Assembly (NCBI GenBank): GCA_017434885.1
Contig: JAFSGE010000031.1
Coordinates: 52,968 to 116,967, forward strand
DNA: 64,000 nt
Direction of reading: 5' to 3'
Source: Lachnospiraceae bacterium
GTDB taxonomy: Bacteria; Bacillota; Clostridia; Lachnospirales; Lachnospiraceae
In this document: piece after piece, positions 43,148-62,495 of the stretch
How the letters are laid out: every line of letters starts with the position of its first letter
Position numbering within the stretch: the first letter of the stretch is position 1
Program-made: the position numbers and the translations under genes
The notes under the pieces: model-generated
Seen by the model: only the letters and a program-made list of their open reading frames with translations
Told to the model about the DNA's origin: nothing
The model's database searches: none

Positions 43148-43179
43148 AAGCACACGGTACATTTGTACGGTGTGTTTTT
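43148..43179 (+). terminator. Rho-independent terminator after the SBP gene
   Basis: The stem 'cacacggtac'/'gtacggtgtg' (one mismatch) is followed by a T5 run. Confidence 0.7.
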
Positions 43180-43222
43180 GAGGATTATAAGCAAAAGACA
43201 AAAGATACAGAGGACAGTAATT

Positions 43223-43573
43223 ATGAGTATGGTAGGGAAAATGATTTTGGAGGAATTCGTAGAAAACCGTTCTGTTTACCTGGAACTGGGGGATGTGGTC
43301 CATAACCGGTTAGAAGAGTTGGTTAAGGAAGCAGGATTATCTATTCTTGGTATCGAACACCGGATTAAAACGGTAAAAAGTCTTGCAGGAAAGTTGGAGA
43401 GAAAGGGAGACGATTACTATCGGAAACTGGAAGATCTAACGGATTTGGTGGGAGCCAGAATTATTTGTTTTTTTGCCGATGAAGTAGATGTTTTGGGTCA
43501 ACTGGTAGAAAAAAGTTTTCAAATTGACCGGGAAAATTCCCTGATTTGGACGGACACAACAATTAGGAAGTAA
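43223..43573 (+). pseudogene. Truncated RelA/SpoT-domain (small alarmone synthetase-like) gene
   Basis: 'HRIKTVKSLAGKLERKG' and 'LEDLTDLVGARIICFF' match the N-terminal half of the synthetase domain. The frame ends 12 codons after 'IDRENS', so the catalytic Glu-containing strands are missing. Confidence 0.5.
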
Positions 43574-43668
43574 AGTCGACAATTAGGTCAAATTGATTGC
43601 GTGAAATGTTGAAATGGTAGATGATAGAAGCAAAGATAATGAGTCATAAAATAAAGGAGACAGAAACA

Positions 43669-43965
43669 ATGACAATTGAAAAGAATCGAAACAATGAAGA
43701 ACTGATAATTGCACCAAAAGGACGTCTTGACACTGTGACAGCCCCTTCTTTGGAAGAAGAATTAAAAGCAAGTTTTGACGGTGTTCAGAAACTGGTATTG
43801 GATTTTAAGGCGCTTGAATATATTTCTTCAGCAGGCCTGCGCGTTCTTCTCATGGCACAGAAAACCATGAATAAGCAGGGGGTTATGGTAATCAGAAATG
43901 TGAATGAGACTATAGCAGAGGTGTTTGAAATTACGGGCTTTGCAGATATGCTTACGATTGAATAA
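43669..43965 (+). CDS. STAS-domain protein (anti-sigma-factor antagonist, SpoIIAA/RsbV-like)
   Basis: The start is moved to 43669 (RBS 'aaaggaga'). 98 aa. 'LVLDFKALEYISSAGLRVLL' carries the conserved phosphorylatable Ser context (Ser53/54), and 'FEITGFADML' is the C-terminal helix. Confidence 0.85.
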   Translation: MTIEKNRNNEELIIAPKGRLDTVTAPSLEEELKASFDGVQKLVLDFKALEYISSAGLRVLLMAQKTMNKQGVMVIRNVNETIAEVFEITGFADMLTIE

Positions 43966-43991: not shown

Positions 43992-46241
43992 ATGAAAAAG
44001 AAAAAGAAAATATCCCAATCTTTTCAAAAGTGGTTATCTGTGGTGATTATGATTGCTTTTTTAGTAACCACGGTATGCCTTTGGGTGATTCAGACAAAAC
44101 TCTCTGAGAATAATGCAATTAAACTGCTGGCACTTAACATTTCTGATGTACGTGAAGATATCATTGATGCATCAGATGAAAATCTTTTAAAACTGACTCA
44201 TGAAATTGCAGAGGAATTAAATCAGACGAATGAGGTTACATCAGAGTTTCTTGAGCAATTGACGGCAAAGTATGATGTGACGGAAATTAATCGCATTAAT
44301 CCCGATGGAATTATAGATGCCAGTACTTATCCGGATTTCCTTGACTATGATATGCGCTCAGGTGCACAGTCGAGTGAGTTTCTGGTACTGCTTTCAGGAG
44401 ATAAGGAGTATGTACAGAGTTATCAGCCGGTTTCGTATGACGATTCCATTTCCCGTAAATATGGTGGTGTGGTTTTGAATAACGGAGGATTTGTGCAGGT
44501 CGGATACGGTTCGGAGCGGTTCCAGAAAGATATTGACGAATTTGTAGTAGGGGTTACCAGAAATCGTCATGTTGGAGAAGGCGGCAGTGTCATTATTGTA
44601 AATGAAGCGTGGAATATTGTCAGTGACAGGCAGGGGAATGAGGGAAAGAATCTTGAAACGGTAGGAGTATGGATAGATAGGGACAAAACACCTGCCGGAG
44701 AAGTGTTTATCGAAACAGTATACGGAGAACCCTGTTATTGTATGTATCAAATTTCGGAAGGGTATCTGGTACTTGCTGTCATGCCTACCGGTGAGGCAGC
44801 ACTTTCACGTAACGTTTCCGTAGGCGTGACAACAGCAATGCAGATTCTGGTGTTTGCTGCATTGTTCGCACTTATTTTCTTTTTAGTAAGACGACTGGTA
44901 GTAGATAATATTTATAAGGTAAATGAGTCTCTTTCGGCGATTTCAGAAGGAAGATTGGACACCACGGTAAATGTCCGTTCTCATGAAGAGTTTAATGCGC
45001 TTTCTGATGATATCAATGCTACGGTAAATACCTTAAAGCGTTATATTTCCGAGGCAGAGGCAAGAATTGATGCGGAACTGGCATTTGCAAAGGCAATACA
45101 GCATTCCGCACTTCCATCTGTATTTCCGCCTTATCCAAATCGCAAAGAATTTGATATTTGGGCAGGAATGTATACAGCAAAAGAAGTAGGCGGTGACTTC
45201 TATGATTTCTATTTTGTAGATGAAGATACATTGGCCTTTTTGGTTGCAGACGTTTCCGGAAAAGGAATTCCGGCGGCAATGTTTATGATGACAGCCAAAA
45301 CCTTTATCAAGAGCTTTGCGGAATCGGGAATGAGTGTAGAAGAAGTATTATCCCATGCCAATGAAAAGTTGTGTGAGGGCAATGATGCCAATATGTTTGT
45401 AACAGCATGGATGGGACTTTTAAATACAAAAACCGGAGTAGTTTCTTATGCAAATGCAGGACATAATCCTCCGTTGGTAAAGCACGGGGATGAAACCTTT
45501 ACTTACTTAAAATCCAGACCCGGTTTTGTTTTGGCGGGAATGGAAGGTGTCCGTTACCGTAAGAATGAAATACAGCTGTTACCGGGTGATTCCATCTATC
45601 TTTATACGGACGGTGTTACAGAAGCTACGAATATAGACAATGAACTCTATGGAGAAGAACGTCTGCTTCATGTCATGAATCAAAAAGCAAATCTGTCTTC
45701 ACAGGAACTTTGTGAAGCGGTAAAAGCAGATGTGGATGCTTTTGTCGGTGAAGCCCCCCAGTTTGATGATATTACTATGCTGTGCCTGAATTACTTTTCA
45801 CCGGATGAAAAAGGAGAAAAGAATAAGAAAGTGAAAGAACTGACCGTAAAGGCTACCGTGGAAAATATTGATGAGATTACGGATTTTATCAATGAACAGT
45901 TAGAAAGCATGAATTGTCCTATGAAAGTACAGATGCAGATAGATGTGGCAGTTGATGAAATCTTTGGAAATATTTGTCATTATGCTTACCCTTTAAGAGA
46001 GGGAGAGGCAACGGTCTTTGTGGAAATGCAGGAAGAAACGCAGGCGGTTGTAATGACCTTTATGGATAGCGGAATTCCATACAATCCGTTAGAAAAGGAA
46101 GAGCCGGATACCACACTTTCTGCAGAAGAAAGGGAAATAGGAGGCCTTGGCATCTTTATTGTAAAAAAAACTATGGATGAGATTTCATACCGATATGAGA
46201 ATGGGAAAAATATTCTTACCGTGAAAAAATATATGAAATGA
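43992..46241 (+). CDS. Membrane sensor: Cache-like extracytoplasmic domain, HAMP, PP2C (SpoIIE-type) phosphatase and a C-terminal SpoIIAB/RsbW-like GHKL domain
   Basis: Two TM helices flank a ~250-aa extracytoplasmic domain. The HAMP segment is 'VNESLSAISEGRLDTTVNVRSHEEFNALSDDIN'. PP2C motifs are 'GGDFYDF', 'ADVSGKGIPAAMFM', 'LYTDGVTEA' and 'DDITML'. The GHKL-like part has 'VDEIFGNICHYAY', 'MDSGIPYNP' and 'GGLGIFIVKKTMD'. Confidence 0.85.
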   Translation: MKKKKKISQSFQKWLSVVIMIAFLVTTVCLWVIQTKLSENNAIKLLALNISDVREDIIDASDENLLKLTHEIAEELNQTNEVTSEFLEQLTAKYDVTEINRINPDGIIDASTYPDFLDYDMRSGAQSSEFLVLLSGDKEYVQSYQPVSYDDSISRKYGGVVLNNGGFVQVGYGSERFQKDIDEFVVGVTRNRHVGEGGSVIIVNEAWNIVSDRQGNEGKNLETVGVWIDRDKTPAGEVFIETVYGEPCYCMYQISEGYLVLAVMPTGEAALSRNVSVGVTTAMQILVFAALFALIFFLVRRLVVDNIYKVNESLSAISEGRLDTTVNVRSHEEFNALSDDINATVNTLKRYISEAEARIDAELAFAKAIQHSALPSVFPPYPNRKEFDIWAGMYTAKEVGGDFYDFYFVDEDTLAFLVADVSGKGIPAAMFMMTAKTFIKSFAESGMSVEEVLSHANEKLCEGNDANMFVTAWMGLLNTKTGVVSYANAGHNPPLVKHGDETFTYLKSRPGFVLAGMEGVRYRKNEIQLLPGDSIYLYTDGVTEATNIDNELYGEERLLHVMNQKANLSSQELCEAVKADVDAFVGEAPQFDDITMLCLNYFSPDEKGEKNKKVKELTVKATVENIDEITDFINEQLESMNCPMKVQMQIDVAVDEIFGNICHYAYPLREGEATVFVEMQEETQAVVMTFMDSGIPYNPLEKEEPDTTLSAEEREIGGLGIFIVKKTMDEISYRYENGKNILTVKKYMK

Positions 46242-46287
46242 TAATGGAACGATGGGTAATTGCAACTTGTTTAGAAGGGAGATTTTT

Positions 46288-47406
46288 ATGACGGCTAGAG
46301 AAAAACTACTACAAATTGAGGATGTATATGACAGGGAAAGCACTTCGGAAATATTTTTGGAAGCGATGAGAGATTGTTTGGCTCATCATATGTCAGGCAA
46401 CGCTTTTTTTAAGAATTATATGGAGAAAGCAGGAGTAAAACCAGAGGATATCAAAACAGAGGACGACCTGGAAAAAATTCCGCCCATTCACGCCAACTTT
46501 TTTAAAAAATACGAGGTGCTCAGTGTGCCGTACGAAGAGATTGTGGAGCATGCAACCAGTTCCGGAACCACCGGACAAAAGAGCCAGATGTTTTTTGACC
46601 AAGATAGCTTCGATTTTGGGAATAACATGGTAAAAAACGAGTTTCGTCATTTTGGATTCCTTTCGGAGGAACAGACCAATTATCTTCTCTTTACCTATGA
46701 GCCGGCGCAGATAAGTAAGGATTTGGGAACCGCTAAAACGGATGTGGGATTACTTAGCTATGCACCGGTAAACGAGACATTTTTTGCCCTTCGCTATAAT
46801 GGTGAAGGACATGATTTTGATGTATACGGAACTATTAAGACTTTAGAAGAATATGAAAAGCAGGGATTACCGGTTCGTATTTTCGGATTTCCTTCCTTTC
46901 TCTATTTTACGGTAAGACAAATGAAGGAAACCGGACACAGACCGCTTCATTTAAATACCAAATCCATGACCATGCTGGGAGGCGGCTGGAAAGGATATGC
47001 TGATAAACAGATACAAAAGAGCGAGTTGTATGCAATGGTAGAAGAGATGCTGGGAATTCCGGCAGAGAATTGCAGAGACGGATATGGTTCCACGGAACAC
47101 TCCGTTCCTTACTTTGAATGCAAAAATCACCATTTCCATATACCGGTGTACAGCAGAATGCTGATTCGTGATGTGAAGACCTTAAGACCGTTACCTTACG
47201 GAGAACCGGGGTTTGCCAATTTTATTACACCTCATTTATTAAGTGTACCTGCCGTGTCGGTTTTGATGGGAGATATGGCAGTGCTGCATGATGCAAAAGA
47301 ATGCGGTTGCGGTATCAAGACACCGTTTATGGAAATTATCGGACGTGCGGGAACCAGCAAAGGAAAAAGCTGTGCAATTACTGCGAGCGAGCTGTTGAAG
47401 CGTTAA
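46288..47406 (+). CDS. LuxE-like acyl-protein synthetase (adenylate-forming)
   Basis: The start is moved to 46288 (RBS 'gaaggga'). It has 'SSGTTGQKSQ' and 'GYGSTE'. The C-terminus is 'CGCGIKTPFMEIIGRAGTSKGKSCAITASELLKR', with a Cys followed by exactly 10 residues. Confidence 0.75.
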   Translation: MTAREKLLQIEDVYDRESTSEIFLEAMRDCLAHHMSGNAFFKNYMEKAGVKPEDIKTEDDLEKIPPIHANFFKKYEVLSVPYEEIVEHATSSGTTGQKSQMFFDQDSFDFGNNMVKNEFRHFGFLSEEQTNYLLFTYEPAQISKDLGTAKTDVGLLSYAPVNETFFALRYNGEGHDFDVYGTIKTLEEYEKQGLPVRIFGFPSFLYFTVRQMKETGHRPLHLNTKSMTMLGGGWKGYADKQIQKSELYAMVEEMLGIPAENCRDGYGSTEHSVPYFECKNHHFHIPVYSRMLIRDVKTLRPLPYGEPGFANFITPHLLSVPAVSVLMGDMAVLHDAKECGCGIKTPFMEIIGRAGTSKGKSCAITASELLKR

Positions 47407-47419
47407 TGGAGGAGTGCAT

Positions 47420-49885: not shown

Positions 49886-49903
49886 GATAGGGAGAGGGTA
49901 ATT

Positions 49904-51157
49904 ATGAGCATTAAAACATATTCATTGGATGAAATCATCCGTTATGCCAGAACACATTCAAAATATTATGCCGATTTATACAAAGATATTCCTGAGGATG
50001 CGCCCTTTGAGGCGCTGCCCCTGATTAATCAGGATGACTTTTGGGCTCATTGTGACCAGGACGGAGGAACAGTGGCGACCGGGAAACAGGCAGACGGACA
50101 GATATTCAAAAGCGGCGGAACCACGGGAGATCCGAAGTACTCTTTATATACTGCGCAGGAGTGGGAAACGCTGTGTGAAGGCTGCGCATCGGTAATGGTC
50201 AAAGGAGGACTGCAAAACGGCACTAAAATTGCCAATCTTTTCTATGCAGGCGGTATGTATGCCAGCTTCTTATATACCTATAGCATGTTATATTTTGCAC
50301 CGGCAAAAACAATTATGTACAATCTTTCCGGAAATGTGTCGGTAGAAGAGATTGTATCCACAATTTTGAAGCATCAGGTCACCTGCCTTGCGGGGGTACC
50401 GTCTATTTTGACCAAAATTGTTTCTTACATTGATGAACATCAGATGACGGGTTTTGCAGTAGATACCGTCTATTTTGCAGGGGAAACCCTGTATATGGAC
50501 CAAAGAGAAAAAATCTCCAGGACCTTTGGAAGAGAGATTTCCTTCCGTTCCTGTTTTTATGCATCCAATGACGGAGGTCCTATCGGATATTTTACAAAGG
50601 ATTGCGGGTTTAACGAGCACAGAGTGATGTCGGAGTTATGTAAACTGGAGCTGATTGATGCTGATACCGGTGAGATTATCACAGAGCCGAACAGACCCGG
50701 AGTGATTTATATTACATCACTTTTTAAAACCTTAATCCCCATGATCCGTTACCCTGCCGGTGATATGGGAGAATATGTGGAGCCGGAAGGGAATGTGGAC
50801 CGTAAATTCAGAATTTTGGGAAGAAGCAATGTAGCTGCCAGAGCCGGTTATGTGACCTTATATCCCCAGGATGTGGGAGAAATTTTGAACAAGTGCGGTA
50901 TTGAATATTATGCCTATCAGATTATCGTAACACATAACGTGCGGGATAAATTTACATTTAAAATTGCGGCAAAACAGGAAAGCGGTCAGAATACAGAAAA
51001 GTTTTTGGAGATGCTGTATCGGGAACGCAGCCTGATGCAGGATGCCCTAAACGACGGTACACTGGATGAACCTGAAGTGGAGTGGTGTAAGGCAACAGAC
51101 CTTGAATACAATGAAAGAACGGGTAAGCTGAAGATTATTATTGATAAGAGAAAGTAA
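49904..51157 (+). CDS. Phenylacetate-CoA ligase-like (PaaK/CapK family) adenylate-forming enzyme
   Basis: 'FKSGGTTGDPKY', 'YFAGETL', 'RYPAGDMGEY' and 'FRILGRSN'. Confidence 0.8.
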   Translation: MSIKTYSLDEIIRYARTHSKYYADLYKDIPEDAPFEALPLINQDDFWAHCDQDGGTVATGKQADGQIFKSGGTTGDPKYSLYTAQEWETLCEGCASVMVKGGLQNGTKIANLFYAGGMYASFLYTYSMLYFAPAKTIMYNLSGNVSVEEIVSTILKHQVTCLAGVPSILTKIVSYIDEHQMTGFAVDTVYFAGETLYMDQREKISRTFGREISFRSCFYASNDGGPIGYFTKDCGFNEHRVMSELCKLELIDADTGEIITEPNRPGVIYITSLFKTLIPMIRYPAGDMGEYVEPEGNVDRKFRILGRSNVAARAGYVTLYPQDVGEILNKCGIEYYAYQIIVTHNVRDKFTFKIAAKQESGQNTEKFLEMLYRERSLMQDALNDGTLDEPEVEWCKATDLEYNERTGKLKIIIDKRK

Positions 51158-51174
51158 AACAGGAGAGTAAGCGG

Positions 51175-52596
51175 ATGGATACAAAGAAAATTGCAACCCT
51201 TGAGATATGGAACAATAAGCTTTATGCAGATGCCACACTTGATTTTTTGGATGTGATGATAGGAAGACTGGATATTCCCCACTATCAGGCATTTCGATTT
51301 GTTGTGGGAGAAATTTTGACTAAAAGAATGGAAAGCGCTTATCCGGACAATAGGGGACTAATGTATGTGGATATCTTTTTGAAGGATACTTTTTTTGAGG
51401 TTTCCATCAGAGATAAAGGAGTTCCCGGATGGCAGGACTTTTCCTACGATATGGAAAGTATTGCCAAAAGCAAAAAGGACCTTCGCAATTACATGCTGAA
51501 CCTTTGCGCAGACGGAGTGGGGATTGAAAAGCTTGGAAAAGACGGCCAGAGAATTTTTATCCGGTTAAGAACAGTAAATTCCATACAGTTTAAGCGTCCT
51601 CAGCCTTATAAAGAAATAGAGGTTCTTGACACCAATATCAGTATTCGTCCCGTTGAGACACAGGAGGATATTATTGAAGCCATCCGTTGTATTTACAGTG
51701 AATACGGCTATTCTTACAGCTATGAGAAATTATATTATGTGGATTCCTTTAAGCGGGCACTGGAAAATGGAGAGCTGATGTCATTTTTGGCTGTCAACGA
51801 CCATGGACAGACTGCCGGACACTTCGCACTTTCCTTCTCGGAACAATTCCGTAATATGCCGGAAATTGCATCTACGGTAATACGAAGAGAATTTCGTGGA
51901 CTTGGTCTTATTGACAGGTTTATTGAGTACTGTCTGGAAGTAGCAAAGAAACATAATTTCAGGGCAGTGATGTCTCAACCGGTTGCATTTCATCCCAAGG
52001 CGCAGAAGGCCGTGTTAAAAGCAGGATTTACAGCAAGCTCTTTATTACTTTCTTATATCAGTTCCGGTTTGGAGAGTGAATATAATGAAAACAAAGAAAG
52101 ACTGGATGTATGTGCCTGTGTGAAAATAATTGATGCAACAGCATACAGCAAAATCTATCCGCCTAAGGAACTGACAGAGCTTTTGAAAAAAATCTATGAC
52201 AAACTGGACTGGAACTATGAATTCAGTGATGAGAAGAAATTAAGCGACAGTACGCAAATCAGTGTGGAAAATCAGGAACAGCTCAAGGCTACCAAAATGG
52301 TTCTTCATGAAGCTGCAGAGGATTTTGAAGAGGTGCTGAGGGAAGTTGTTCAAAATACAATCAAAAACAAAAATGAAATGATTGAGTTGGTCATTTGTTT
52401 AAATTCTCCAAGCGCCGAGTATGGATATCAGGTAGCAAGAAGGAACGGCTTGGCGGTTTCGGGAGTGATTCCTGGCAGTGAAAGTGGCGACTACCTGATA
52501 ATGCAGATGCTGGTGGGAGATAAACTGAAATATGATAAGCTGGTGCTTGCCGGTGAATTTGAAGAATTAAAAGAAGATATTCTTAAATTATCATAA
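51175..52596 (+). CDS. GNAT-family acyltransferase flanked by an N-terminal, possibly GHKL-like, domain and an unassigned C-terminal domain
   Basis: The central GNAT core is 'FLAVNDHGQTAGHFAL...VIRREFRGLGLIDRFIEYCLEVAKKHNF'. The N-terminal ~135 aa ('FRFVVGEILTKRMESAY', 'VSIRDKGVPG') loosely resembles an anti-sigma kinase fold. Confidence 0.65.
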   Translation: MDTKKIATLEIWNNKLYADATLDFLDVMIGRLDIPHYQAFRFVVGEILTKRMESAYPDNRGLMYVDIFLKDTFFEVSIRDKGVPGWQDFSYDMESIAKSKKDLRNYMLNLCADGVGIEKLGKDGQRIFIRLRTVNSIQFKRPQPYKEIEVLDTNISIRPVETQEDIIEAIRCIYSEYGYSYSYEKLYYVDSFKRALENGELMSFLAVNDHGQTAGHFALSFSEQFRNMPEIASTVIRREFRGLGLIDRFIEYCLEVAKKHNFRAVMSQPVAFHPKAQKAVLKAGFTASSLLLSYISSGLESEYNENKERLDVCACVKIIDATAYSKIYPPKELTELLKKIYDKLDWNYEFSDEKKLSDSTQISVENQEQLKATKMVLHEAAEDFEEVLREVVQNTIKNKNEMIELVICLNSPSAEYGYQVARRNGLAVSGVIPGSESGDYLIMQMLVGDKLKYDKLVLAGEFEELKEDILKLS

Positions 52597-52608
52597 AAAA
52601 ATACAGAG

Positions 52609-53904
52609 ATGGTAGGCAAGACGATAATGCTCTTTGATGAATTTGGACGGATGCAGATACTGGACGGTATGCGTTATTATAAGAAGACACAGGAAGAGAA
52701 TAATATGCCTCGTTTTGTGATTACCATGACAGAGGAAATTGATAGGGAATGCCTGCAGTATGCAGCCAAGGTTGCCATGCAGAGGTTCTGTGTACAGCGT
52801 TTGGTAGCGGAAGCGGATGAGAGTCGTTTCTATTTAAAACAGAATCTTCAAGAGCCGGTTGTTCATTTAGACAACGGAGAGAGGCATATCGTGTGTAATG
52901 AGAAAAACAGAGGACATATGATATGGATAGGGTATAAAGAATGCGATATTATTGTTGACTTTTTTCATGGTGTTTCGGATGGTATTGGTATGATGCCCTT
53001 TATGGTGCTGCTGTTAACTTCTTATTGCCAAAAAAAATATAGCAATAAAATATACGAAAAGACAGATTTGCAGTCCGGTGGGAATGAAAATGAATATACT
53101 GAGGCTATCCGCTTCTTACCGGAAGAGCCTGTTGTTACAGAGCATTCTTACCGGTGGAAAAGTGCTTTGCAGTTAAAAGGCAGGCAGATGAAGCTAAAGA
53201 GTGGTTGTCATTATTATGTTTTATCTGTGGATGGAGATGCCTTTGATGATTATGTAACAAGAAATGGTTCCTGCCGTTCGGCAGTATTTGCCATGTTTAT
53301 GAATCAGGCAATAGCAGGCATACATAAAGTGGATACAAAACCCATAGTAGCAGCTATGGCAGTCAACGCAAGGAAGGCTTACGGAGCAGAAGAGACCCTG
53401 CAGTGTTGTGTGGCCACGATACCGCTATGGTATGACAGGGAAATAGCAGAACTTTCCGTATCGGAAAGATTAAAAAAGGGCAGAGCAATGGTGTCGGAAG
53501 GCGTAAAGAAGGAATGTGTTCTTTGGGGAGCACAAAAAAAACGGCTGCTCAATCAGAATTTGGAAGCAAATTATCCTACTCTTGAAGAAAAGAGGGCGCA
53601 TTGCAGAAGGCTTACGGATAGCAGTAGCGACAGATACACTTATGGATTAAGTTATCTGGGAAATATCAGTTTTGGGGAGTTTGCAGATGCTTACGTGAGA
53701 GATGTAAGAGTGATGCTCTGTGCAAATACCGTTCCGCTTATTTTGGAAATTTTAAAATGGAAGGGAAAGTATACGATTAGTTATAACACCCATCTGGAAG
53801 AGGATAGATATTTGAAGGAATTGATGGTAATGTTTCAGGAGGCGGGCATTACCTGCAATTGCGTAAAGCAGGAGATGTTTGAAGAGGCATTGGCAGATTT
53901 TTGA
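52609..53904 (+). CDS. HxxxD-motif acyltransferase-like protein (condensation / WS-DGAT / PapA5 superfamily candidate)
   Basis: 431 aa. 'IIVDFFHGVSDGIGMMPF' lies about 115 residues from the N-terminus, as in condensation-type acyltransferases. There are no other diagnostic motifs, and the start is uncertain. Confidence 0.45.
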   Translation: MVGKTIMLFDEFGRMQILDGMRYYKKTQEENNMPRFVITMTEEIDRECLQYAAKVAMQRFCVQRLVAEADESRFYLKQNLQEPVVHLDNGERHIVCNEKNRGHMIWIGYKECDIIVDFFHGVSDGIGMMPFMVLLLTSYCQKKYSNKIYEKTDLQSGGNENEYTEAIRFLPEEPVVTEHSYRWKSALQLKGRQMKLKSGCHYYVLSVDGDAFDDYVTRNGSCRSAVFAMFMNQAIAGIHKVDTKPIVAAMAVNARKAYGAEETLQCCVATIPLWYDREIAELSVSERLKKGRAMVSEGVKKECVLWGAQKKRLLNQNLEANYPTLEEKRAHCRRLTDSSSDRYTYGLSYLGNISFGEFADAYVRDVRVMLCANTVPLILEILKWKGKYTISYNTHLEEDRYLKELMVMFQEAGITCNCVKQEMFEEALADF

Positions 53905-53952
53905 TGGAATGTGAAGCAGAATTGATGATAGAAAGTAAGAGGATAAATTGAT

Positions 53953-54939
53953 ATGAATGAAGAATCTGTAAAAATCCGCGAAATGCTGCTAAAATGTTAC
54001 GGAGTCGATATAGAAGAGGCGAAATGCCATTTTTCTACACAGAATTATGCCTATATATTTCCAAATCATCCGTACATGATTCGTGTCAGTAAGATGCCCA
54101 AAAAGACAAGAAAAGAGATACTCAGTGAGTTAATGTGGGTAGATGATTTGAAGCAATTCAAACAGACAATTTGTGAACCCAGCGTTTCCATCGGCGGAAA
54201 AATTTTGGAAGAATTTGAGATTGACGGTGTGACATATCGGGCAAGTATGTTCCGGACGGCACGGGGAAACGTGCAGGTATCAACGGAAATGACGCCGATG
54301 TTTTTTATTTGCGTGGGAGAATTGTTGGGTATTATTCATCATGTCAGTACGGATGAACGTGAAAACGGGATGAAATTCCAGAGAAAAGAGCTGAAGGATA
54401 TTTTTGCACAGCAGAAAGAAAAGGTGTGGGAAAAATTGAAACCGGAGATTCAAGGCAGGATTACAGCCATTGAAACACAGGTAAATTCACTGCCGCAAGA
54501 CCTTGGAACTTATGGCATTTGCCATGGGGATTTCCAGGCCAATAATTTTTTTGTAGAGGCCAATAATGTCTGGCTGTTTGACTTTGACGGATGTTGCTAT
54601 GCCAATTATCTGTATGATGTGGCAAGCTTTATTTTATCTTGTTTTCTCGGAGGATTTGGTGGCGGTAAGGAGTGCAGTCAGGTTATAGAGGAGATTTTGC
54701 ACTATTTGAAAATAGGCTATGAATTAAATCATAAATGTACAGATGAGTACTGGGAACAATTGCCGTTATTCATAAGTTATCGTGCAGCATATACGGCACT
54801 GATGTTGGCAGAAATAGAAACCTGTGGTGTGGTTTCCAGCCTGGATGAGATTAAAGAATTCTTTTCATTTATTCTTCTTCAGGATGACATTTATGAGGGG
54901 ATTACAAAAGTAATCAGTGAGAGAAAGAGCCGGCTATGA
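53953..54939 (+). CDS. APH/choline-kinase-family small-molecule phosphotransferase
   Basis: The Brenner motif is 'ICHGDFQANNFF' and the Mg-binding motif is 'LFDFDGCCY'. The RBS is 'aagagga'. Confidence 0.8.
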   Translation: MNEESVKIREMLLKCYGVDIEEAKCHFSTQNYAYIFPNHPYMIRVSKMPKKTRKEILSELMWVDDLKQFKQTICEPSVSIGGKILEEFEIDGVTYRASMFRTARGNVQVSTEMTPMFFICVGELLGIIHHVSTDERENGMKFQRKELKDIFAQQKEKVWEKLKPEIQGRITAIETQVNSLPQDLGTYGICHGDFQANNFFVEANNVWLFDFDGCCYANYLYDVASFILSCFLGGFGGGKECSQVIEEILHYLKIGYELNHKCTDEYWEQLPLFISYRAAYTALMLAEIETCGVVSSLDEIKEFFSFILLQDDIYEGITKVISERKSRL

Positions 54940-56690
54940 AAAACAGTTATCTGATAAGAAAACTCTATTTATCATTTTTGATTGTGTCAATTCTTTCCGC
55001 TCTTACTGCTACGGTGGGAATATTGATTGATAATATTATAGTAGGAATGTATTTAGGTGATGTTTCATTAGGCGCTATGGGGATTGTGGGGCCTATCAGT
55101 CTTATTTTTTCCGCAATCGGAAATATATGTTCCGGAGGCGGAACGGCCAGAGCGGCGCAGGCATTGGGAAAAGGTGATGGGGAAGGCTTGTATCAGATTT
55201 TTACAGTTACTGTGCTGTTTGCTGTAGCAGGGGGATTTCTCATTACTATTTTGGGACTGCTGTTCACTCCGCAGCTGGCGGAGCTTCTTGGGGCAAAAGG
55301 AGAATTACTTGAACCATCCATTCAGTATTTGCGGGGCTACTTTCTGGGGGCTGTTCCCACAATTATGCTTACGGCCCTTTCCGGATTTGTAAAGATAGAC
55401 GGTTCACCAAGATTGCCGCTCATATGCATTATAGTAATGTCTTCGGCAAATATTATTCTGGATTTTTTGATGATTCATGCATTTCATCTCGGAATGTTCG
55501 GTATGGCACTTGCAACTACCATCAGTTATGTGGTGGCAGTATTGATTGCCTGCACACATTTTTTTAAGAAGCATTCTACGCTTCGATTGGTAGTGCCAAA
55601 GAAAATGCTTGGCGAGTGGATACAGATGGTTACGACAGGTGCACCTACAGCAATCAGTAGGGTTTGTGATACCGTAAAGGTCATGGTGCTGAATCATATG
55701 CTGGTGTTGTTTGTGGGAGTAGGTGCTGTTACCGCGTTAAGCATAAGGACGCAGGCATATAGCTTTTTTGGTGCATTTTTGATAGGAATTGCCCAGGCGT
55801 CTGTGCCGTTAACCGGATTATTCTACGGAGAAGAAGATATAACAGCGTTAAAGGATATCTTAAAAAATACATTAAAAATCGGACTTTTTATCAATGTAAT
55901 ATTGGCAGTGTTGCTGTTTCTGACAGCACCGTTTTTCGTGGAACTTATGGGTGTTTCCGAGCCGGAAACAAAAAAAATGGCAGTAAATGCGGTCAGGCTG
56001 TTTGCAATCGGCGTGCCTTTTGCGCTGATTAACTACATATTTATGAGCTTTTATCAGAGTACGAAAAGAATAGCCATGGCAACCATGATTTGTGTATTAC
56101 AGTCTTTGGTATATGTGTTACTTATAGCGGTGCTTTTAATTGGAACACTTAAGGAAAGTGGGATATGGCTTGCATTTTTGGCAGCAGAAATATTAACAAT
56201 TTTCACGACAATAGCAGTGATAGCTTATCACTGCAGAAAAATTCCGGGAAAGATTACAGATTTCATGTTGCTAAAAGAAGACTTTGGAAGCAGAGAGGAA
56301 GACCGATTGGAAATTTCCGTAGGGAATGATATGGTGGAACTGGTGAACATATCTGCAGGCATTCATAAGTTTGGCGAAGGGCGCAACATCAGTCAAAAGC
56401 TTCTTAAGGAGTTGGCGCTGTGCATTGAAGAAATCGGTGGCAATGTGATACATCATGCTTTTCGTCCGGGTGAGAAAAAGTGGTTTGATATCATGATTCT
56501 GGATAAAAAGGATTTACTTATTGTGCGTCTTCGTGATAATGGAGCCGCTTTTAATCCGGTTAATTACTGCGATGACTATGATATGAAGAAAGAAAAATAT
56601 GGACTACAGTTAATCCGTAGTATGGCAGACGACATGAAGTATAAGAGAACTTTGGAAATGAATAATATCATTATTACTTTTAAGAAATAA
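54936..56690 (+). CDS. MATE-family efflux transporter fused to a C-terminal SpoIIAB/RsbW-like GHKL domain
   Basis: It has a ~440-aa 12-TM MATE core. The cytoplasmic ~140-aa tail has 'LALCIEEIGGNVIHHAF' (N-box-like), 'LRDNGAAFNP' and 'KYGLQLIRSMADDMKY'. The start overlaps the upstream stop (ATGA). Confidence 0.8.
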   Translation: MKNSYLIRKLYLSFLIVSILSALTATVGILIDNIIVGMYLGDVSLGAMGIVGPISLIFSAIGNICSGGGTARAAQALGKGDGEGLYQIFTVTVLFAVAGGFLITILGLLFTPQLAELLGAKGELLEPSIQYLRGYFLGAVPTIMLTALSGFVKIDGSPRLPLICIIVMSSANIILDFLMIHAFHLGMFGMALATTISYVVAVLIACTHFFKKHSTLRLVVPKKMLGEWIQMVTTGAPTAISRVCDTVKVMVLNHMLVLFVGVGAVTALSIRTQAYSFFGAFLIGIAQASVPLTGLFYGEEDITALKDILKNTLKIGLFINVILAVLLFLTAPFFVELMGVSEPETKKMAVNAVRLFAIGVPFALINYIFMSFYQSTKRIAMATMICVLQSLVYVLLIAVLLIGTLKESGIWLAFLAAEILTIFTTIAVIAYHCRKIPGKITDFMLLKEDFGSREEDRLEISVGNDMVELVNISAGIHKFGEGRNISQKLLKELALCIEEIGGNVIHHAFRPGEKKWFDIMILDKKDLLIVRLRDNGAAFNPVNYCDDYDMKKEKYGLQLIRSMADDMKYKRTLEMNNIIITFKK

Positions 56691-56700
56691 AGGAGAAGAC

Positions 56701-58422
56701 ATGGACAATAGATATAAGTACAGGCATAATCCAATTGTAAAGAAAATCTTTATGACAATGTTAGTTCCAACTATTTTTATGAATTTAACAACGGCGATTG
56801 CTTCCATGGCGGATGCAATTATTATCGGACAGTATCTGGATGATGCCTCCTTGTCAGTAGTAACTTTTGCAATGCCTATTTTTTTGATTATTAATGTTTT
56901 TTCCGCTCTGCTTGCAGTGGGAGGATGTATTTCCATGAGTATAGATGCAGGAAAGGGCGATAAAGAGGAAGCCAATAAAGCATTCAGTATTTCAATAGAA
57001 CTGCTTTTAGCTATGGGAGTATTGTTATTGCTTGCCGGTTTATTTTTCAGTCGTACCATTACAGGTTGGCTGGGGGCAGGAGAAGATATATTTGAATCCG
57101 TGGAACTGTATTCCCGGATTATTCTGATGGGCGGACCATTTTTTGTACTGAATACGGGACTTGCATTTTTTGTGAGAAATGACGGAAGACCAACGCTGTC
57201 CATGATGGGAATGTTTGCTTCTATTTTTGTAGATATTACATTGAATTTTGTATTTGTGGGAGTGATGAAAATCGGAGTGGCCGGTGCGGCTTATTCCACA
57301 GTAATAGGAAGCATTGTCAGTGTACTCATTGTATGCACACATTTCTTTCATGCGAAAAATACATTGAAATTCTGTTTTGCTTTTGACAGCATGGCAATAC
57401 GGATTATGAAAAACGGCGGAAGTACAGCCCTGCAATTTATTTACCAGTTTGTTACAGTACTTATTATGAATCATTTCCTCGCGGATTTGTCAGGAACAGG
57501 TGGTGTAGTTGTTTATACAGTGGTAATTAACCTTTCTACAGTGGCCCTTTCGTTGTTTGAAGGAATCAGTCAGACCATACAGCCGATGGTCAGCAATTAT
57601 TTTGGAGAAAAAAGTTATCGGAAAATGAAGGAAGTGTTGCGACTTGCTTTTATTACTACTCTTGTGATATGCGGAAGTATTACTATACTTCTTGAGGCAA
57701 TGCCGCAGTGGATTCCCATGATTTTTGGAATTGAAGATGCAGCGTTGATGGCAAATTCTGTGATTGCGGTACGCATTTATACGGCAGGTATGATTATTAC
57801 AACCGTAAATGTATTGATTAGCTATTATCTTCAGTCTATTGAACAGACCTTAATGTCAGCTGTCATAGTCAGTTTACGCAACTTTGTATTGCTGTTATGT
57901 GCAGTGTTTGTTCTCGGTAAACTGTTCGGAATGAATGGGATATGGGCAGCTTACCCGGTAGCAGAGGTTCTTACATTTTTTGTTGGCATTGGAATGATTT
58001 GTGCCAAACAGAAGAAACTGGAAAAGACCGGAAAGCATATGAACATTTTTTTGTTGGATGAAACGGTTGAATGGAACACGGAATGTTATACATATGATAG
58101 CATGAACGATGCTTTCCCTGATTTTTGCGATATTGTACTTCAATCTTTGGCAAGGAGAGGAGAATGTAGCGGAGAAATGGCACAGGATGCTGAAAACTAT
58201 CTGTTACAGCTTGGAAACGGAATCAAAAAGAAAAAAGGAAATTATATTGAAATGGAAGTAAATGGTCTTGAAAAAACCATCATTATCAGAGACAATTTGA
58301 ATCATGCAGATATTCCTGTAAATATTCAGGATACGATAAAAAGCGATAGTAATTCGGATTATGGTCCTGTGCTTGGATGGAACAGATTGATCCGTAAGGA
58401 AATAAAAAACAAAGAGGTGTAA
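56701..58422 (+). CDS. Second MATE-family efflux transporter with a ~135-aa divergent cytoplasmic C-terminal domain
   Basis: It has a 12-TM MATE core. The tail, 'AENYLLQLGNGI...YIEMEVNGLEKTIIIRDNLNHADIP...DYGPVLGWNRLI', is colinear with the tail of the upstream MATE but degenerate. Confidence 0.8.
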   Translation: MDNRYKYRHNPIVKKIFMTMLVPTIFMNLTTAIASMADAIIIGQYLDDASLSVVTFAMPIFLIINVFSALLAVGGCISMSIDAGKGDKEEANKAFSISIELLLAMGVLLLLAGLFFSRTITGWLGAGEDIFESVELYSRIILMGGPFFVLNTGLAFFVRNDGRPTLSMMGMFASIFVDITLNFVFVGVMKIGVAGAAYSTVIGSIVSVLIVCTHFFHAKNTLKFCFAFDSMAIRIMKNGGSTALQFIYQFVTVLIMNHFLADLSGTGGVVVYTVVINLSTVALSLFEGISQTIQPMVSNYFGEKSYRKMKEVLRLAFITTLVICGSITILLEAMPQWIPMIFGIEDAALMANSVIAVRIYTAGMIITTVNVLISYYLQSIEQTLMSAVIVSLRNFVLLLCAVFVLGKLFGMNGIWAAYPVAEVLTFFVGIGMICAKQKKLEKTGKHMNIFLLDETVEWNTECYTYDSMNDAFPDFCDIVLQSLARRGECSGEMAQDAENYLLQLGNGIKKKKGNYIEMEVNGLEKTIIIRDNLNHADIPVNIQDTIKSDSNSDYGPVLGWNRLIRKEIKNKEV

Positions 58423-58962: not shown

Positions 58963-60873
58963 ATGAAAAAGCACAAAAGAATTTTATCACTGCTTCTTGC
59001 CGGTATGCTGGCAATGTTATTACTTGTCGGTTGCGGTAATGCAGATGCAGAAGCAGTAGAAACAACTGGAACAGCAGAAGCAGCAGAAGCAGCGGAATCA
59101 ACAGTGGAAGCTGTGGAATCAACTTTGGAAGAAACGGCAGATGCGGACGCAAAAGCAGAGGAAAACACCACAGACGATGATATCGTTATTTTGTATACCA
59201 ATGATGTACATACTTACGTGGACGGTCCCATCAGCTATGATGTCATTGCTGCCGTTAAAAAGGAACTTCAGACTAAATACGGATATGTATATCTGGTGGA
59301 TGCAGGAGACCATATTCAGGGAACGGCCTATGGCTCTATGGATAATGGGGAAACAATTATCAAAATGATGAACGCGGCGGGCTATGATGCGGCTACCTTG
59401 GGAAATCATGAGTTTGACTATGGTATGTTCGGATGTATGAAGGTAATTGATATGGCTGAATATCCTTATGTATCCTGCAATTTTCATCATGAAGCAGGGG
59501 GTGTATGCGGTGATAATGTATTAGACAGTTACAAGCTTTTCACAGCAGGGGAAGAAACTGTTGCACTTATCGGTATTACTACACCTGAGACCTTTACCAA
59601 AACCACCCCTGCATATTTCCAGGATGAAACGGGAAACTTTATTTACGGTATTGCAGGAGGCGAAGATGGTAGTGAGCTTTATGTAGCTGTTCAAAAAGCA
59701 ATTGATGGTGCGATGTCAGCAGGTGCAACCAAAGTGATTGCATTGGGACATCTTGGAGATGATTTATCTTCCGTACCTTGGACCAGTGAGGAAACCATTG
59801 CAAACGTAACCGGCCTTCATGCCTTTATTGACGGACACTCTCACAGTACGGTAGAAGGTAAGAAAGTTGCTGACAAGGACGGCAATCAGGTGGTATTAAC
59901 CCAGACAGGACAGTATTTTGACAGAATCGGAATAATGATAATTGACGCTGAAAGCGGCGATATCACTACGGATTTCATTGAATACAAAGAAGTTCTGGCA
60001 GCAGATGGTGAAACTGTGGAAGGCTATGAATTATGTTCTGACATGTATGAAGGAACAGAAATGATATATGATACAGAGGTACAGGCAATCAAGGATGCAT
60101 GGATTGCAGAAATTGATAACAAGCTTGGACAGAAGGTAGGAGAGGCAACAGTAGTTCTGGACAATTATGATGCGGAAGGAAATCGTATGGTCAGAGGACA
60201 GGAAACCAATACCGGCGATTTCTGTGCGGATGCATTGTATTATTTGTTTGATGATATGGAAATGGATGTAGATGTCAGTATTATGAATGGCGGCGGCATC
60301 CGTAACAAGGCAGTTACAGGAGAAGTTACATACAAAACCTGTAAGGACATCCACACCTTTGGAAATGTGGCATGTTTGCAGACTGTTAGCGGACAACAGA
60401 TTTTGGATGCACTGGAATGGGGGAGCAGACAGCTTGGTTCAGGAGAAGAGAGCGGCGGATTTTTGCAGGTTTCCGGGTTGACTTATCACATTGATACTTC
60501 CATGCCATGTACGGTACAGCAGGATGAAAATGGAATCTGGACCGGTGGACCTACAGGAGAATACCGGGTACATGAAGTGAAGGTTTATAACAAAGAAACC
60601 AATGAATGGGAAGACCTGCAGCTGGATGCTGAGTATAATCTGGCAGGCTATAATTACACACTTAGGGATTTGGGTGACGGATGTGCCATGTTTGAGGGCG
60701 CAGTCAATGTCCTTGACTATGTGATGGAGGATTATATGGTTCTGGCAAACTACGTGCAGGGATTTGAAGGCGGCATAGTAGATGCAGATAATTCTCCTCT
60801 TTTGGAAAAATATTCCGGTTTTGTGATAAACTACAGTGAAACAACAGGAAGCGGACGAATCAAAATAGAATAA
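58963..60873 (+). CDS. Lipoprotein 5'-nucleotidase / metallophosphoesterase (UshA-like) with an acidic low-complexity linker
   Basis: The lipobox is 'LLVGCGN'. Metallophosphatase motifs are 'TNDVHT', 'DAGDHIQG' and 'GNHEFD'. A C-terminal 5'-nucleotidase substrate domain is present. Confidence 0.85.
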   Translation: MKKHKRILSLLLAGMLAMLLLVGCGNADAEAVETTGTAEAAEAAESTVEAVESTLEETADADAKAEENTTDDDIVILYTNDVHTYVDGPISYDVIAAVKKELQTKYGYVYLVDAGDHIQGTAYGSMDNGETIIKMMNAAGYDAATLGNHEFDYGMFGCMKVIDMAEYPYVSCNFHHEAGGVCGDNVLDSYKLFTAGEETVALIGITTPETFTKTTPAYFQDETGNFIYGIAGGEDGSELYVAVQKAIDGAMSAGATKVIALGHLGDDLSSVPWTSEETIANVTGLHAFIDGHSHSTVEGKKVADKDGNQVVLTQTGQYFDRIGIMIIDAESGDITTDFIEYKEVLAADGETVEGYELCSDMYEGTEMIYDTEVQAIKDAWIAEIDNKLGQKVGEATVVLDNYDAEGNRMVRGQETNTGDFCADALYYLFDDMEMDVDVSIMNGGGIRNKAVTGEVTYKTCKDIHTFGNVACLQTVSGQQILDALEWGSRQLGSGEESGGFLQVSGLTYHIDTSMPCTVQQDENGIWTGGPTGEYRVHEVKVYNKETNEWEDLQLDAEYNLAGYNYTLRDLGDGCAMFEGAVNVLDYVMEDYMVLANYVQGFEGGIVDADNSPLLEKYSGFVINYSETTGSGRIKIE

Positions 60874-61394: not shown

Positions 61395-62495
61395 TTACAT
61401 TTCTATATGCAGTATATTTGTACCGTTCCGGTAGGTATGAGTATGATGTTTAGCCATATTTTGCAAAATAGTAATGCTCAGATTATCCTCCATGGTATCC
61501 TCTGCTTCAGATGCAAAAGGATTGAAGGAAGCTCCCATACTGGTACAAATGAGCAGAATAGTTTTATCAGCTTCGGAGTATTCAATGGAAATCTCGATAT
61601 CAATCCGGTCGGGATTTAGTTCCATAATCGGATAAATAAGTTCTTCTGTACAAAGTTGTAGACGGTTTGCAGTTTTCAGACCAAGACCGTAGCGGTTCAC
61701 AAAATCGTAAATACCCCCCTGGATGGCCATTAAGTCGAAATTCTTATCCGTTATATGATAGTTGAAAAACTTCAGTTTCTTAATAAAGGAAATTGTCTTT
61801 TCTCTTTGAGGATTTTCAAAAATTTGTTTCGGTGTACCCTGTTCGTAGATGCCCTTGTCTGCAAAAAACAGAACCCGGTCTGCAATCTCCTTTGCAAAAT
61901 TCATTTCATGGGTCACAATCAGCATTGTCATTTTCTTTTTGGCGAGTCCGCGCATGGTTGCCAAAACCTCTCCCACCATGGTTGGGTCCAAGGCAGATGT
62001 AGGTTCATCAAAGAGCATAATTTTCGGGTCCATCATCAGACAGCGGGCGATGGCGATCCGCTGCTTTTGCCCACCGGAAAGATTGGCCGGCATGGCATAT
62101 GCTTTTTCCGGCAAACCAACTTGATTTAATAAATTTCGGGCCTTTTTTTCTGCATTTTCACGGCTCATCTTACGAAGATGTACCGGTGCAAGGCATAAGT
62201 TATCCATTACGTTCATATGGGTAAAAAGGTTGAAATTTTGGTATACCATTCCCATGCTGCAACGGATTTTATCAATATCAGCATCTTTGGCGGTGATTTC
62301 CTGATCATCAATAATAATTTTTCCGGCATCCGGAGCCTCTAACAGTTCCATGCAGCGTAAAGTAACACTTTTTCCGCATCCGGAGCCTCCGATAATAGCA
62401 ATGACTTCGCCTTCTTCTACGGCTAAATTCACATCCTTAAGTACTTCCAGAGAACCGAAGGATTTGCATAATCCTTTGATTTCGATTAAACTCAT
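61395..62495 (-). CDS. Polar amino acid ABC transporter ATP-binding protein with a ~120-aa C-terminal extension
   Basis: Walker A is 'GGSGCGKS', the signature is 'LSGGQKQRIAIARCL' and Walker B is 'MLFDEPTSALD'. At 366 aa it is longer than the ~240 aa usual for this family. The tail has 'LQLCTEELIYPIM', 'SMGASFNPF' and 'ITILQNMAKHHTHTYRNGTNILHIEM'. Confidence 0.9.
   Translation of the reverse strand: MSLIEIKGLCKSFGSLEVLKDVNLAVEEGEVIAIIGGSGCGKSVTLRCMELLEAPDAGKIIIDDQEITAKDADIDKIRCSMGMVYQNFNLFTHMNVMDNLCLAPVHLRKMSRENAEKKARNLLNQVGLPEKAYAMPANLSGGQKQRIAIARCLMMDPKIMLFDEPTSALDPTMVGEVLATMRGLAKKKMTMLIVTHEMNFAKEIADRVLFFADKGIYEQGTPKQIFENPQREKTISFIKKLKFFNYHITDKNFDLMAIQGGIYDFVNRYGLGLKTANRLQLCTEELIYPIMELNPDRIDIEISIEYSEADKTILLICTSMGASFNPFASEAEDTMEDNLSITILQNMAKHHTHTYRNGTNILHIEM

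Follow-up and report, generated by a model that had tools for sequence, protein, structure and literature searches.

An RsbW/SpoIIAB-type GHKL domain fused to a MATE exporter in a Lachnospiraceae bacterium, and a candidate STAS-based partner switch of efflux

The partner switches of Bacillus pair SpoIIAB and RsbW, anti-sigma-factor serine kinases that are free dimeric proteins of about 145 residues, with the STAS proteins SpoIIAA and RsbV. SiaA/B/C/D of Pseudomonas is a bifunctional-type partner switch on a STAS protein and has a non-sigma output. Further switches with non-sigma outputs are SypE/SypA of Vibrio fischeri and BtrU/V/W of Bordetella (PMC8256260), and in HenR/All4160 of Anabaena the STAS protein acts on a glycosyltransferase, a case put forward in 2026 as widening the paradigm to include the direct control of enzymes (bioRxiv 10.64898/2026.04.08.717354). 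Analysis of a 64,000-nucleotide stretch of the genome of a Lachnospiraceae bacterium (assembly GCA_017434885.1, contig JAFSGE010000031.1, positions 52,968 to 116,967 of the forward strand; hereafter the window) identified a gene, MATE1, predicted to join a MATE exporter to a domain of the RsbW/SpoIIAB type (tail 1), within an array that also encodes a STAS protein and a sensor with PP2C phosphatase and kinase domains.

STAS domains are also known from membrane transport, as SLC26/SulP anion transporters carry a C-terminal STAS domain themselves. In the Mla system, the STAS protein MlaB binds the ABC ATPase MlaF, with a phosphorylatable Ser/Thr at the interface (PMC7367683). Common to these transporters and to the arrangement proposed for the window is a STAS fold acting post-translationally on a membrane transporter. 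However, the STAS protein binds the nucleotide-binding domain directly in Mla and is part of the transporter in SulP, whereas in the window the transporter would carry the anti-sigma-kinase-like partner and the STAS protein would be separate, diffusible and under kinase/phosphatase control. SypE/SypA, BtrU/V/W, SiaA/B/C/D, HenR/All4160 and Rv1364c of Mycobacterium tuberculosis, a bifunctional PP2C and RsbW-like protein, resemble the window system in combining a PP2C and HATPase_c_2 protein with a STAS protein and a non-sigma output. In those systems the target, where known, is an enzyme (a diguanylate cyclase, a glycosyltransferase), whereas in the window it is transporters, a MATE and an ABC ATPase, that contain GHKL-type partner domains, which points straight to the likely target. 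Non-sigma outputs of partner switches and STAS proteins acting on transporters are therefore already known; apparently new is an anti-sigma-kinase domain in a MATE, with a cognate-looking free STAS protein.

Compared with the Bacillus systems, the window encodes a domain of the same HATPase_c_2 family, for which SpoIIAB and RsbW are the best solved relatives and which has the N-box E..N..H and the G1 aspartate, together with a cognate-looking STAS protein bearing a phosphorylatable serine and a PP2C phosphatase. It differs in that the domain is fused to a MATE of 12 transmembrane helices and no sigma factor is apparent; the MATE1 tail has a single glycine for a G2 box, its G1 glycine is often replaced by cysteine in the family, and the output is presumably transport and not transcription. 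The parts of MATE1 are as follows.

54936..56690, forward strand: MATE1 gene, MATE core with an RsbW/SpoIIAB-type GHKL tail (584-amino-acid open reading frame (ORF); Pfam MatE twice and HATPase_c_2)
54936..56234, forward strand: MATE1 core, residues 1-433, 12 transmembrane helices (AlphaFold2 helices across residues 5-433)
56235..56303, forward strand: MATE1 linker, residues 434-456, confidently modelled (predicted local distance difference test (pLDDT) 88-93 by block)
56304..56687, forward strand: tail 1, GHKL (HATPase_c_2) domain, residues 457-584 (Pfam, BLASTP and PDB profile matches)
56394..56459, forward strand: N-box helix of tail 1, residues 487-508, with E498, E499, N503 and H507 (aligned to E, N and H of RsbW)
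56514..56558, forward strand: G1-box strand and loop of tail 1, residues 527-541, with R531, R533, D534-N-G536, F539 and P541
56592..56624, forward strand: remnant G2 box and helix of tail 1, residues 553-563, with G556 as the sole glycine of GGLG

An earlier note, made from the letters of the window alone, had described the MATE1 ORF with a tail of about 140 residues behind the MATE core. The ORF, the tail and the positions of all quoted motifs were confirmed; the interval given there for the tail (56268-56690) corresponds to residues 445-584 plus the stop codon, and tail 1 lies inside it. MATE1 belongs to the MATE family by its two MatE repeats (Pfam E-value 1.3e-36), and the AlphaFold2 model of the whole protein, built on a 68-sequence alignment, has a pLDDT of 92.3 and a predicted template-modelling score (pTM) of 0.90. 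Over about 436 columns the core can be overlaid on PfMATE, VcmN and DinF-BH (TM-score 0.84-0.90 of target; Foldseek probability 1.0 for PfMATE and VcmN), while matches to NCBIfam models (FepA, MepA and MATEs linked to biosynthetic gene clusters) all fall far under the equivalog cut-offs. Likeness to canonical MATEs (PfMATE, VcmN, DinF-BH, NorM, ClbM and those of the FepA/MepA type) lies in the two repeats and the superposable core. In contrast, solved bacterial and archaeal MATEs, of about 440-480 residues, align to residues 1 to about 436 of MATE1 only, and none has a C-terminal GHKL domain. By sequence and model, MATE1 is a secondary-active exporter of the MATE family whose last transmembrane helix bears a fused cytoplasmic GHKL domain of the RsbW/SpoIIAB type. 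As a member of that family it would be expected to export a small molecule in a cation-coupled manner. The linker segment 'LLP..FG' is kept in the consensus of the MATE-tail family, and an orthologue 96% identical to MATE1, with unchanged gene order, lies on a contig of a goat-colon metagenome-assembled genome (MAG; locus L001).

Several comparisons converge on the identity of tail 1. Pfam HATPase_c_2 (PF13581) matches residues 469-581 of MATE1 with an E-value of 4.7e-11 and 43.2 bits, against a gathering score of 27.4. The colinearity with the C-terminal domain of the window's PP2C protein (43992-46241) that the earlier note had read from the letters was borne out by BLASTP (E-value 1e-8, 23% identity over 134 residues), and a hidden Markov model (HMM) built from the tails of 64 relatives scores the PP2C-protein tail at 1e-17. 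Against the PDB, tail 1 as a lone sequence gave no significant match, and a family profile was needed: with a profile of 28 tail sequences the best matches were RsbW (1.8e-6) and SpoIIAB (2.8e-5), ahead of the histidine kinase VraS (2e-3). A histidine-kinase reading was rejected for want of a DHp/HisKA domain and because VraS scores below both RsbW and SpoIIAB. A Foldseek search with the full-length MATE1 model retrieved MATE cores only and gave no direct fold match for tail 1. In the AlphaFold2 model (pLDDT about 90), tail 1 forms a Bergerat alpha/beta sandwich with the element order of the HATPase_c_2 family: strand 457-462, helix 466-481, helix 487-508, strand 517-523, strand 527-534, short helix 541-546, helix 555-563, strand 566-572 and strand 575-583.

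The ATP-binding motifs of tail 1 are largely kept. The N-box E..N..H is present as E499, N503 and H507, and among 149 tails E498 and E499 are each conserved in 99%, N503 in 98% and H507 in 74% (Tyr in 19%). The G1 box reads D534-N-G536, in agreement with DxG; D534 is found in 97% and F539 in 98% of the tails, and at position 536 Cys (55%) outnumbers Gly (40%). The G2 box departs from the pattern, with EKYG in tail 1 versus GGLG in RsbW and the PP2C-protein tail; G556 is 97% conserved, and positions 553 and 554 are non-Gly in most of the family. The ratio of nonsynonymous to synonymous substitution rates (dN/dS) of tail 1 against the goat-colon orthologue is 0.057, from small counts. Because the ATP-binding residues are conserved throughout the 149 tails and the tail dN/dS is low, nucleotide binding by the tail 1 family looks to be under selection. 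By sequence and predicted fold, tail 1 is a HATPase_c_2 member with an atypical G2 box.

The fusion is not confined to the window. An exhaustive search of 1.84 billion cluster representatives found 1744 proteins at an E-value of 1e-3 or below and 197 at 1e-10 or below. Among the best 150 matches, 67 are proteins of at least 540 amino acids matching at about residues 442-590; the shorter ones are contig-end fragments in which the match is again C-terminal. Most full-length relatives have 575-620 amino acids with the tail at the C-terminus, and the survey of domain architectures suggested in the earlier note found MatE and HATPase_c_2 together in 68 of the 68 full-length relatives scanned. Matches in genomes came from Lachnospiraceae, Monoglobus and Eubacterium MAGs, and a metagenome scan with one peptide pattern added 241 confirmed MATE-tail stretches. 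Method mattered here, as word-indexed searches with single tails gave four fragments each and exhaustive representative and profile searches were needed; in the locus scan, the 28-sequence tail alignment proved too diverse and an 8-sequence subset was used. An assembly or annotation artefact was rejected in view of the 149 independent tails and the pTM of the MATE1 model. The MATE-HATPase_c_2 fusion is, on these sequence matches, a sizeable, recurrent and previously undescribed family of gut and rumen Clostridia. No such fusion, nor STAS control of a MATE, is described in the full-text literature searched, and NCBIfam has no dedicated model for an anti-sigma-kinase domain within a MATE pump. 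To our knowledge, MATE transporters are regarded as autonomous ion-coupled pumps of about 450 residues without a cytoplasmic regulatory domain, and their post-translational control is essentially unknown. The same generalization in the earlier note holds for the solved MATEs, which lack an extra domain, but it needs qualifying in view of the size of the fusion family.

The window also encodes the other members expected of a partner switch.

43621..43965, forward strand: STAS-only protein of the anti-sigma-factor antagonist type, first regulatory gene of the array (Pfam STAS E-value 1.1e-17)
43992..46241, forward strand: membrane sensor with HAMP, PP2C (SpoIIE; residues 410-600) and HATPase_c_2 (residues 620-746, nucleotides 45849-46229) domains

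The STAS protein matches the NCBIfam anti-sigma factor antagonist model (E-value 6e-22) and has a phosphorylatable serine, S70 (nucleotides 43828-43830), as its predicted phosphorylation site. The segment YISSAGL is aligned with DSSGLG of SpoIIAA, and S70 stands opposite the phosphorylated Ser58. The sensor gene begins 27 bp after the STAS gene and its product is matched by Pfam SpoIIE (1e-54) and HATPase_c_2 (2e-21), with NCBIfam similarity to SiaA, RsbW and SpoIIAB; its kinase domain is complete, with the N-box E/N, the G1 box DSG and the G2 box GGLG. At the level of sequence, the STAS, PP2C and kinase trio has the makeup of a partner-switching system.

Gene neighbourhoods elsewhere give independent support to the view that the tails work with STAS proteins. 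For this comparison 85 loci were fetched and dereplicated to 61 clusters at 90% tail identity, and the locus ORFs were searched with iterated HMMs for STAS, PP2C, APH and MATE. In 9 of the 61 clusters the MATE-tail gene is followed on its own strand, at no more than 150 bp, by a STAS-only gene; 58 of the 61 extend for at least 400 bp beyond the MATE-tail gene. When STAS and PP2C genes are taken together, 15 clusters have one no further than 2 kb away and 19 no further than 6 kb. The density of STAS genes per 100 kb declines with distance, from 18 at 0-0.5 kb to 4.5 at 0.5-2 kb, 2.3 at 2-6 kb and 0 beyond 6 kb. Gene orders vary: STAS-APH-MATE-tail in L007, APH-MATE-tail-STAS in L017, MATE-tail followed by PP2C-HATPase_c_2 in L046 and L050, and PP2C followed by MATE-tail in L037. 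In L003 (Monoglobus), an APH and MATE-tail pair is preceded at 4.6 kb by genes for a PP2C-HATPase_c_2 sensor and a STAS protein, with a 5'-nucleotidase gene likewise a few kb upstream. All neighbouring STAS proteins keep YISSAGLR, including the phospho-serine position. Those beside the closer MATE-tail relatives share 54-67% identity with the window STAS protein, a higher conservation than that of the tails themselves. Neither the window array nor the neighbours scanned at 12 loci contained a sigma-factor gene.

Three further types of STAS-associated gene were seen at these loci. Near a MATE-tail gene, a STAS domain carrying YISSAGLR is fused to an APH kinase (L002:3579-4757, reverse strand, 392 amino acids), and near another it is fused, with the same motif, to an AMP-binding adenylating enzyme (L075:2429-4318, forward strand, 629 amino acids). 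The third is a conserved protein of about 200 amino acids that has no Pfam match and no counterpart in the window, carries an N-box-like 'LRLLTEEMxGMM' and is 50-70% identical between loci. Its gene directly follows the STAS gene in five loci (L036:2663-3274, L056:736-1344, L063:1876-2112, L071:974-1600 and L085:8333-8962), stands between STAS and MATE-tail in L050:3030-3641, and in L003:1299-1949 lies on the opposite (reverse) strand several kb from the STAS gene. This protein may be a degenerate RsbW-like third partner.

MATE1 is followed by a second exporter gene, MATE2, whose tail had been described in the earlier note as a degenerate copy of tail 1; the motifs quoted there for this tail were confirmed.

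56701..58422, forward strand: MATE2 gene, 573 amino acids, in tandem with MATE1 (ORF; Pfam MatE twice only)
58033..58419, forward strand: tail 2, degenerate SpoIIAB/RsbW-like fold, residues 445-573 (AlphaFold2 and Foldseek)

Sequence statistics do not place tail 2 in the family: there is no Pfam match, BLASTP found no similarity to tail 1 or the PP2C-protein tail, the tail HMM was not significant and hhalign gave P 0.03-0.06. The non-significant alignments keep the register, with 'YIEMEV..IIIRDN' on the G1 strand pair and 'YGPVLGWNRL' on the last strands, and a full-length BLASTP alignment of MATE2 with a MATE-HATPase_c_2 protein (L004) extends through the tail. The AlphaFold2 model of tail 2 (25-sequence alignment) has a pLDDT of 87.6 and a pTM of 0.80. 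Among its top 20 PDB matches, 18 are SpoIIAB, RsbW, UsfX of M. tuberculosis or the RsbW domain of Rv1364c (PDB 3ke6), the other two (ranks 11 and 13) being chains of 9qih (LvrC/SenB); Foldseek probabilities are 0.84-1.0, TM-scores 0.43-0.58 and E-values 1e-3 to 8e-2. With this result, the GHKL/SpoIIAB-like fold that the earlier note had expected is predicted for both tails, through profile comparison with the PDB, AlphaFold2 and Foldseek. A profile search for tail 2 found 27 related proteins, nearly all of them MATE C-termini, in which YIEVEIN, IIRDNLNH and EYGPVLGWNR are conserved. The ATP-binding motifs are gone: the N-box Asn is absent, the N-box segment is variable and deleted in several relatives, the G2 helix is a 4-residue turn and only 'IRDN' is retained, leaving the beta-sheet without the ATP lid. 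The dN/dS of tail 2 against the goat-colon locus is 0.27, versus the much lower value of tail 1, both from small counts. A degenerate copy that has lost its ATP-binding apparatus is a reasonable description of tail 2 because of the predicted fold and colinearity, not of sequence statistics.

Pairing of MATE-tail genes recurs, with tandem or convergent pairs in which both HATPase_c_2 tails are intact (L049:116-3689, L039, L061 and L084:4839-8793); in L084 one STAS gene lies between two convergent MATE-tail genes. MATE1 and MATE2 may be a version of such a pair in which one tail has decayed. The idea that tail-2-type modules always stand beside a MATE1-type gene was rejected, as P0158 and P0162 are lone, apparently split MATE genes without STAS. 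On several independent contigs (L086:3218-4445, L087-L090 and L091:2346-4072), tail-2-type MATE genes are split into two overlapping ORFs, for example of 263 and 159 amino acids on 17 contigs; these represent either frameshifts that recur or genes that have decayed, with no STAS nearby. A tail 2 core of about 60 residues (..VIIRDN..H...EYGxVLGWNRICLE) also occurs behind an HTH_3 (XRE) domain in P0178 and behind a lipoprotein-like signal sequence in P0169, and it may be a mobile module in its own right.

A third tail of this kind is carried by an ABC ATPase encoded on the opposite strand downstream of the array.

61398..61763, reverse strand: C-terminal tail of an amino-acid-type ABC ATPase (GlnQ/TcyN-like; gene 61395-62495), member of the tail family, about 120 residues

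This tail is recognized by the tail-family HMM (1.8e-12) and by hhalign (probability 96.8%, E-value 2e-10) and is also present in L001. Its ATP-binding residues have been lost (N503 to P, D534 to S, G556 to S), and the tail resembles a GHKL remnant kept on an importer for docking only.

A fairly probable account of these observations is a partner-switching circuit in which tail 1 docks, and probably phosphorylates, the STAS protein, working with the PP2C/kinase sensor, and in which the transporter takes the place of the sigma factor. The account starts from the observed domain identity, family size, conservation of ATP-binding residues, recurrent STAS adjacency and conserved phospho-serine; binding, phosphotransfer and the effect on transport are taken from the analogy with SpoIIAB/SpoIIAA and RsbW/RsbV. 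The PP2C phosphatase of the sensor would yield unphosphorylated STAS protein, which would bind nucleotide-loaded tail 1. The bound STAS protein would alter the action of the tail on the MATE core or on the partner MATE, and export would be switched. Phosphorylation of Ser70 by tail 1 or by the kinase domain of the sensor would then release the STAS protein and reset the system. The tails of MATE2 and the ABC ATPase, which share the predicted fold and lack the ATP-binding residues, would be docking-only branches of the same network.

Several findings weigh against this account. The G2 box, which forms the ATP lid, is cut to one glycine in tail 1, and the G1 glycine is a cysteine in more than half of the family; therefore, the kinase competence of tail 1 is uncertain. 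A canonical kinase is already supplied by the sensor protein. The window STAS gene lies 11 kb upstream of MATE1, in the same array yet not adjacent to it. About two-thirds of the clusters have no STAS or PP2C gene in the available flank (many of the contigs being short), and L002, L004 and several 20-kb loci lack an adjacent one.

The array that holds MATE1 and MATE2 comprises twelve same-strand genes with gaps of at most 48 bp, and its designation as an operon is a call from gene spacing of 48 bp or less. Promoter-like sites between 42900 and 61500 were at shuffle expectation, and terminator-like matches there were weak and inside genes. According to Pfam and NCBIfam, the genes encode, in order, the STAS protein, the HAMP-PP2C-HATPase_c_2 protein, a LuxE-like acyl-protein synthetase, a LuxC-like reductase fused to an AMP-ligase, a second AMP-ligase, a GNAT protein, a 431-amino-acid protein without Pfam match, an APH-family kinase, MATE1, MATE2, a lipoprotein and a 5'-nucleotidase-type phosphoesterase (58963-60873).

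53953..54939, forward strand: APH-family kinase gene, with a 4-bp overlap with the MATE1 start (Pfam APH E-value 4.5e-12)

The genes at 46252-54939 (LuxE, LuxC and AMP-ligase, AMP-ligase, GNAT, the 431-amino-acid protein and APH) and at 58963-60873 look biosynthetic. The APH and MATE-tail pair is also found in L001-L003, L006, L007, L009-L015 and L017, which makes APH the conserved upstream partner in the closest relatives, and the closest such pairs lie within non-ribosomal peptide synthetase (NRPS) clusters of the C-A-T-reductase type (L006, L007); the stretch L003:2-1249 was noted together with these. One might speculate, from the APH overlap and the secreted 5'-nucleotidase-type phosphoesterase, that a phosphorylated pro-form is exported and then activated extracellularly. 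The GNAT protein (51175-52596, forward strand) has a weak HATPase_c_2 match over residues 35-87 (Pfam E-value 5e-3; 'GEILTKRMESAY ... SIRDKG'); it was not counted as a member of the tail family, the hhalign P of 0.019 being non-significant. Just upstream of the STAS gene, a 136-amino-acid ORF (43163-43573, forward strand) matches the first half only of the RelA_SpoT domain (Pfam E-value 1.3e-7), and its product could be a truncated small alarmone synthetase or reflect a mis-called start.

The flow of information could also run in reverse, although this is judged unlikely. The MATE core would then report its transport or substrate-loading state to the tail, the tail would phosphorylate or sequester the STAS protein, and the STAS protein would relay to the biosynthetic enzymes, MATE2, the ABC importer or the PP2C sensor that export is running or product is accumulating. 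Such a role would fit the retained ATP-binding residues of tail 1, the fusions of STAS to APH (L002) and to an AMP-ligase (L075), and the existence of other tail-like partners, namely the ABC tail, the MATE2 tail and the N-box-like protein of about 200 amino acids beside STAS genes. However, the classical GHKL partner is a regulated or regulating hub, not the output of a sensor, and loci such as L017 and L084, with MATE-tail and STAS genes and no recognizable nearby target, fit self-regulation more simply.

Somewhat less likely still is a phospho-regulated docking scaffold, in which a STAS/GHKL connector would bring biosynthetic enzymes, either fused to STAS or bearing GHKL-like domains, to the exporter; a reactive product would then arise right at the pump and be exported directly, with transport itself ungated. 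The STAS-enzyme fusions of L002 and L075, the position of the closest MATE-tail relatives inside NRPS clusters (L007, L006), the biosynthetic genes of the window array (LuxE, LuxC and AMP-ligase, AMP-ligase, GNAT and APH) and the weak N-terminal HATPase_c_2 match of the GNAT protein are all in line with this, but the last of these is not significant by hhalign. Moreover, most STAS-adjacent MATE-tail loci have a free STAS protein and no biosynthetic genes (an amylase in L084, ROK/PMI in L017), and a passive connector needs no conservation of ATP-binding residues.

It is improbable that the tails act independently of STAS, by dimerizing, as SpoIIAB and RsbW do, and/or by sensing ATP, to pair MATE protomers (for example MATE1 and MATE2) or to couple a proton or sodium pump to the energy state of the cell. 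The MATE-tail pairs in L049, L039, L061 and L084, the MATE1 and MATE2 tandem in the window, the beta-sheet retained in tail 2 without an ATP lid and the nucleotide-binding residues conserved in the tail 1 family would all suit such a module. Most MATE-tail genes are single, however, and the strong distance-dependent enrichment of one conserved STAS subfamily would be left unexplained. A true membrane-tethered anti-sigma factor, whose tail would sequester a SigF/SigB-type sigma factor until STAS frees it, is most improbable: the closest solved relatives of the tails are indeed anti-sigma factors, but sigma-factor genes are missing from the window array and the scanned neighbours of 12 loci, and the architecture is linked to transport and biosynthesis genes instead.

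The hypothesis offered here is thus the partner switch acting on MATE1, in which efflux, probably of the product of the biosynthetic cluster, would be switched by serine phosphorylation; it is easily testable. A broader and more tentative version is that one phosphorylatable STAS protein, set by the membrane PP2C/kinase sensor, may serve as the post-translational master switch of a secondary-metabolite pathway, docking on GHKL-type domains (the ATP-binding tail of MATE1 and the degenerate tails of MATE2 and the ABC importer) and elsewhere being fused to APH or an adenylating enzyme. If true, this would be the first phospho-regulated MATE, and a new way of controlling biosynthetic gene clusters, at the protein and not the transcript level. 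Control of MATE1 by its tail would take partner switching beyond sigma factors and a few enzymes into transport, and it would make sense of the many orphan STAS, PP2C and HATPase_c_2 genes found in Clostridia.

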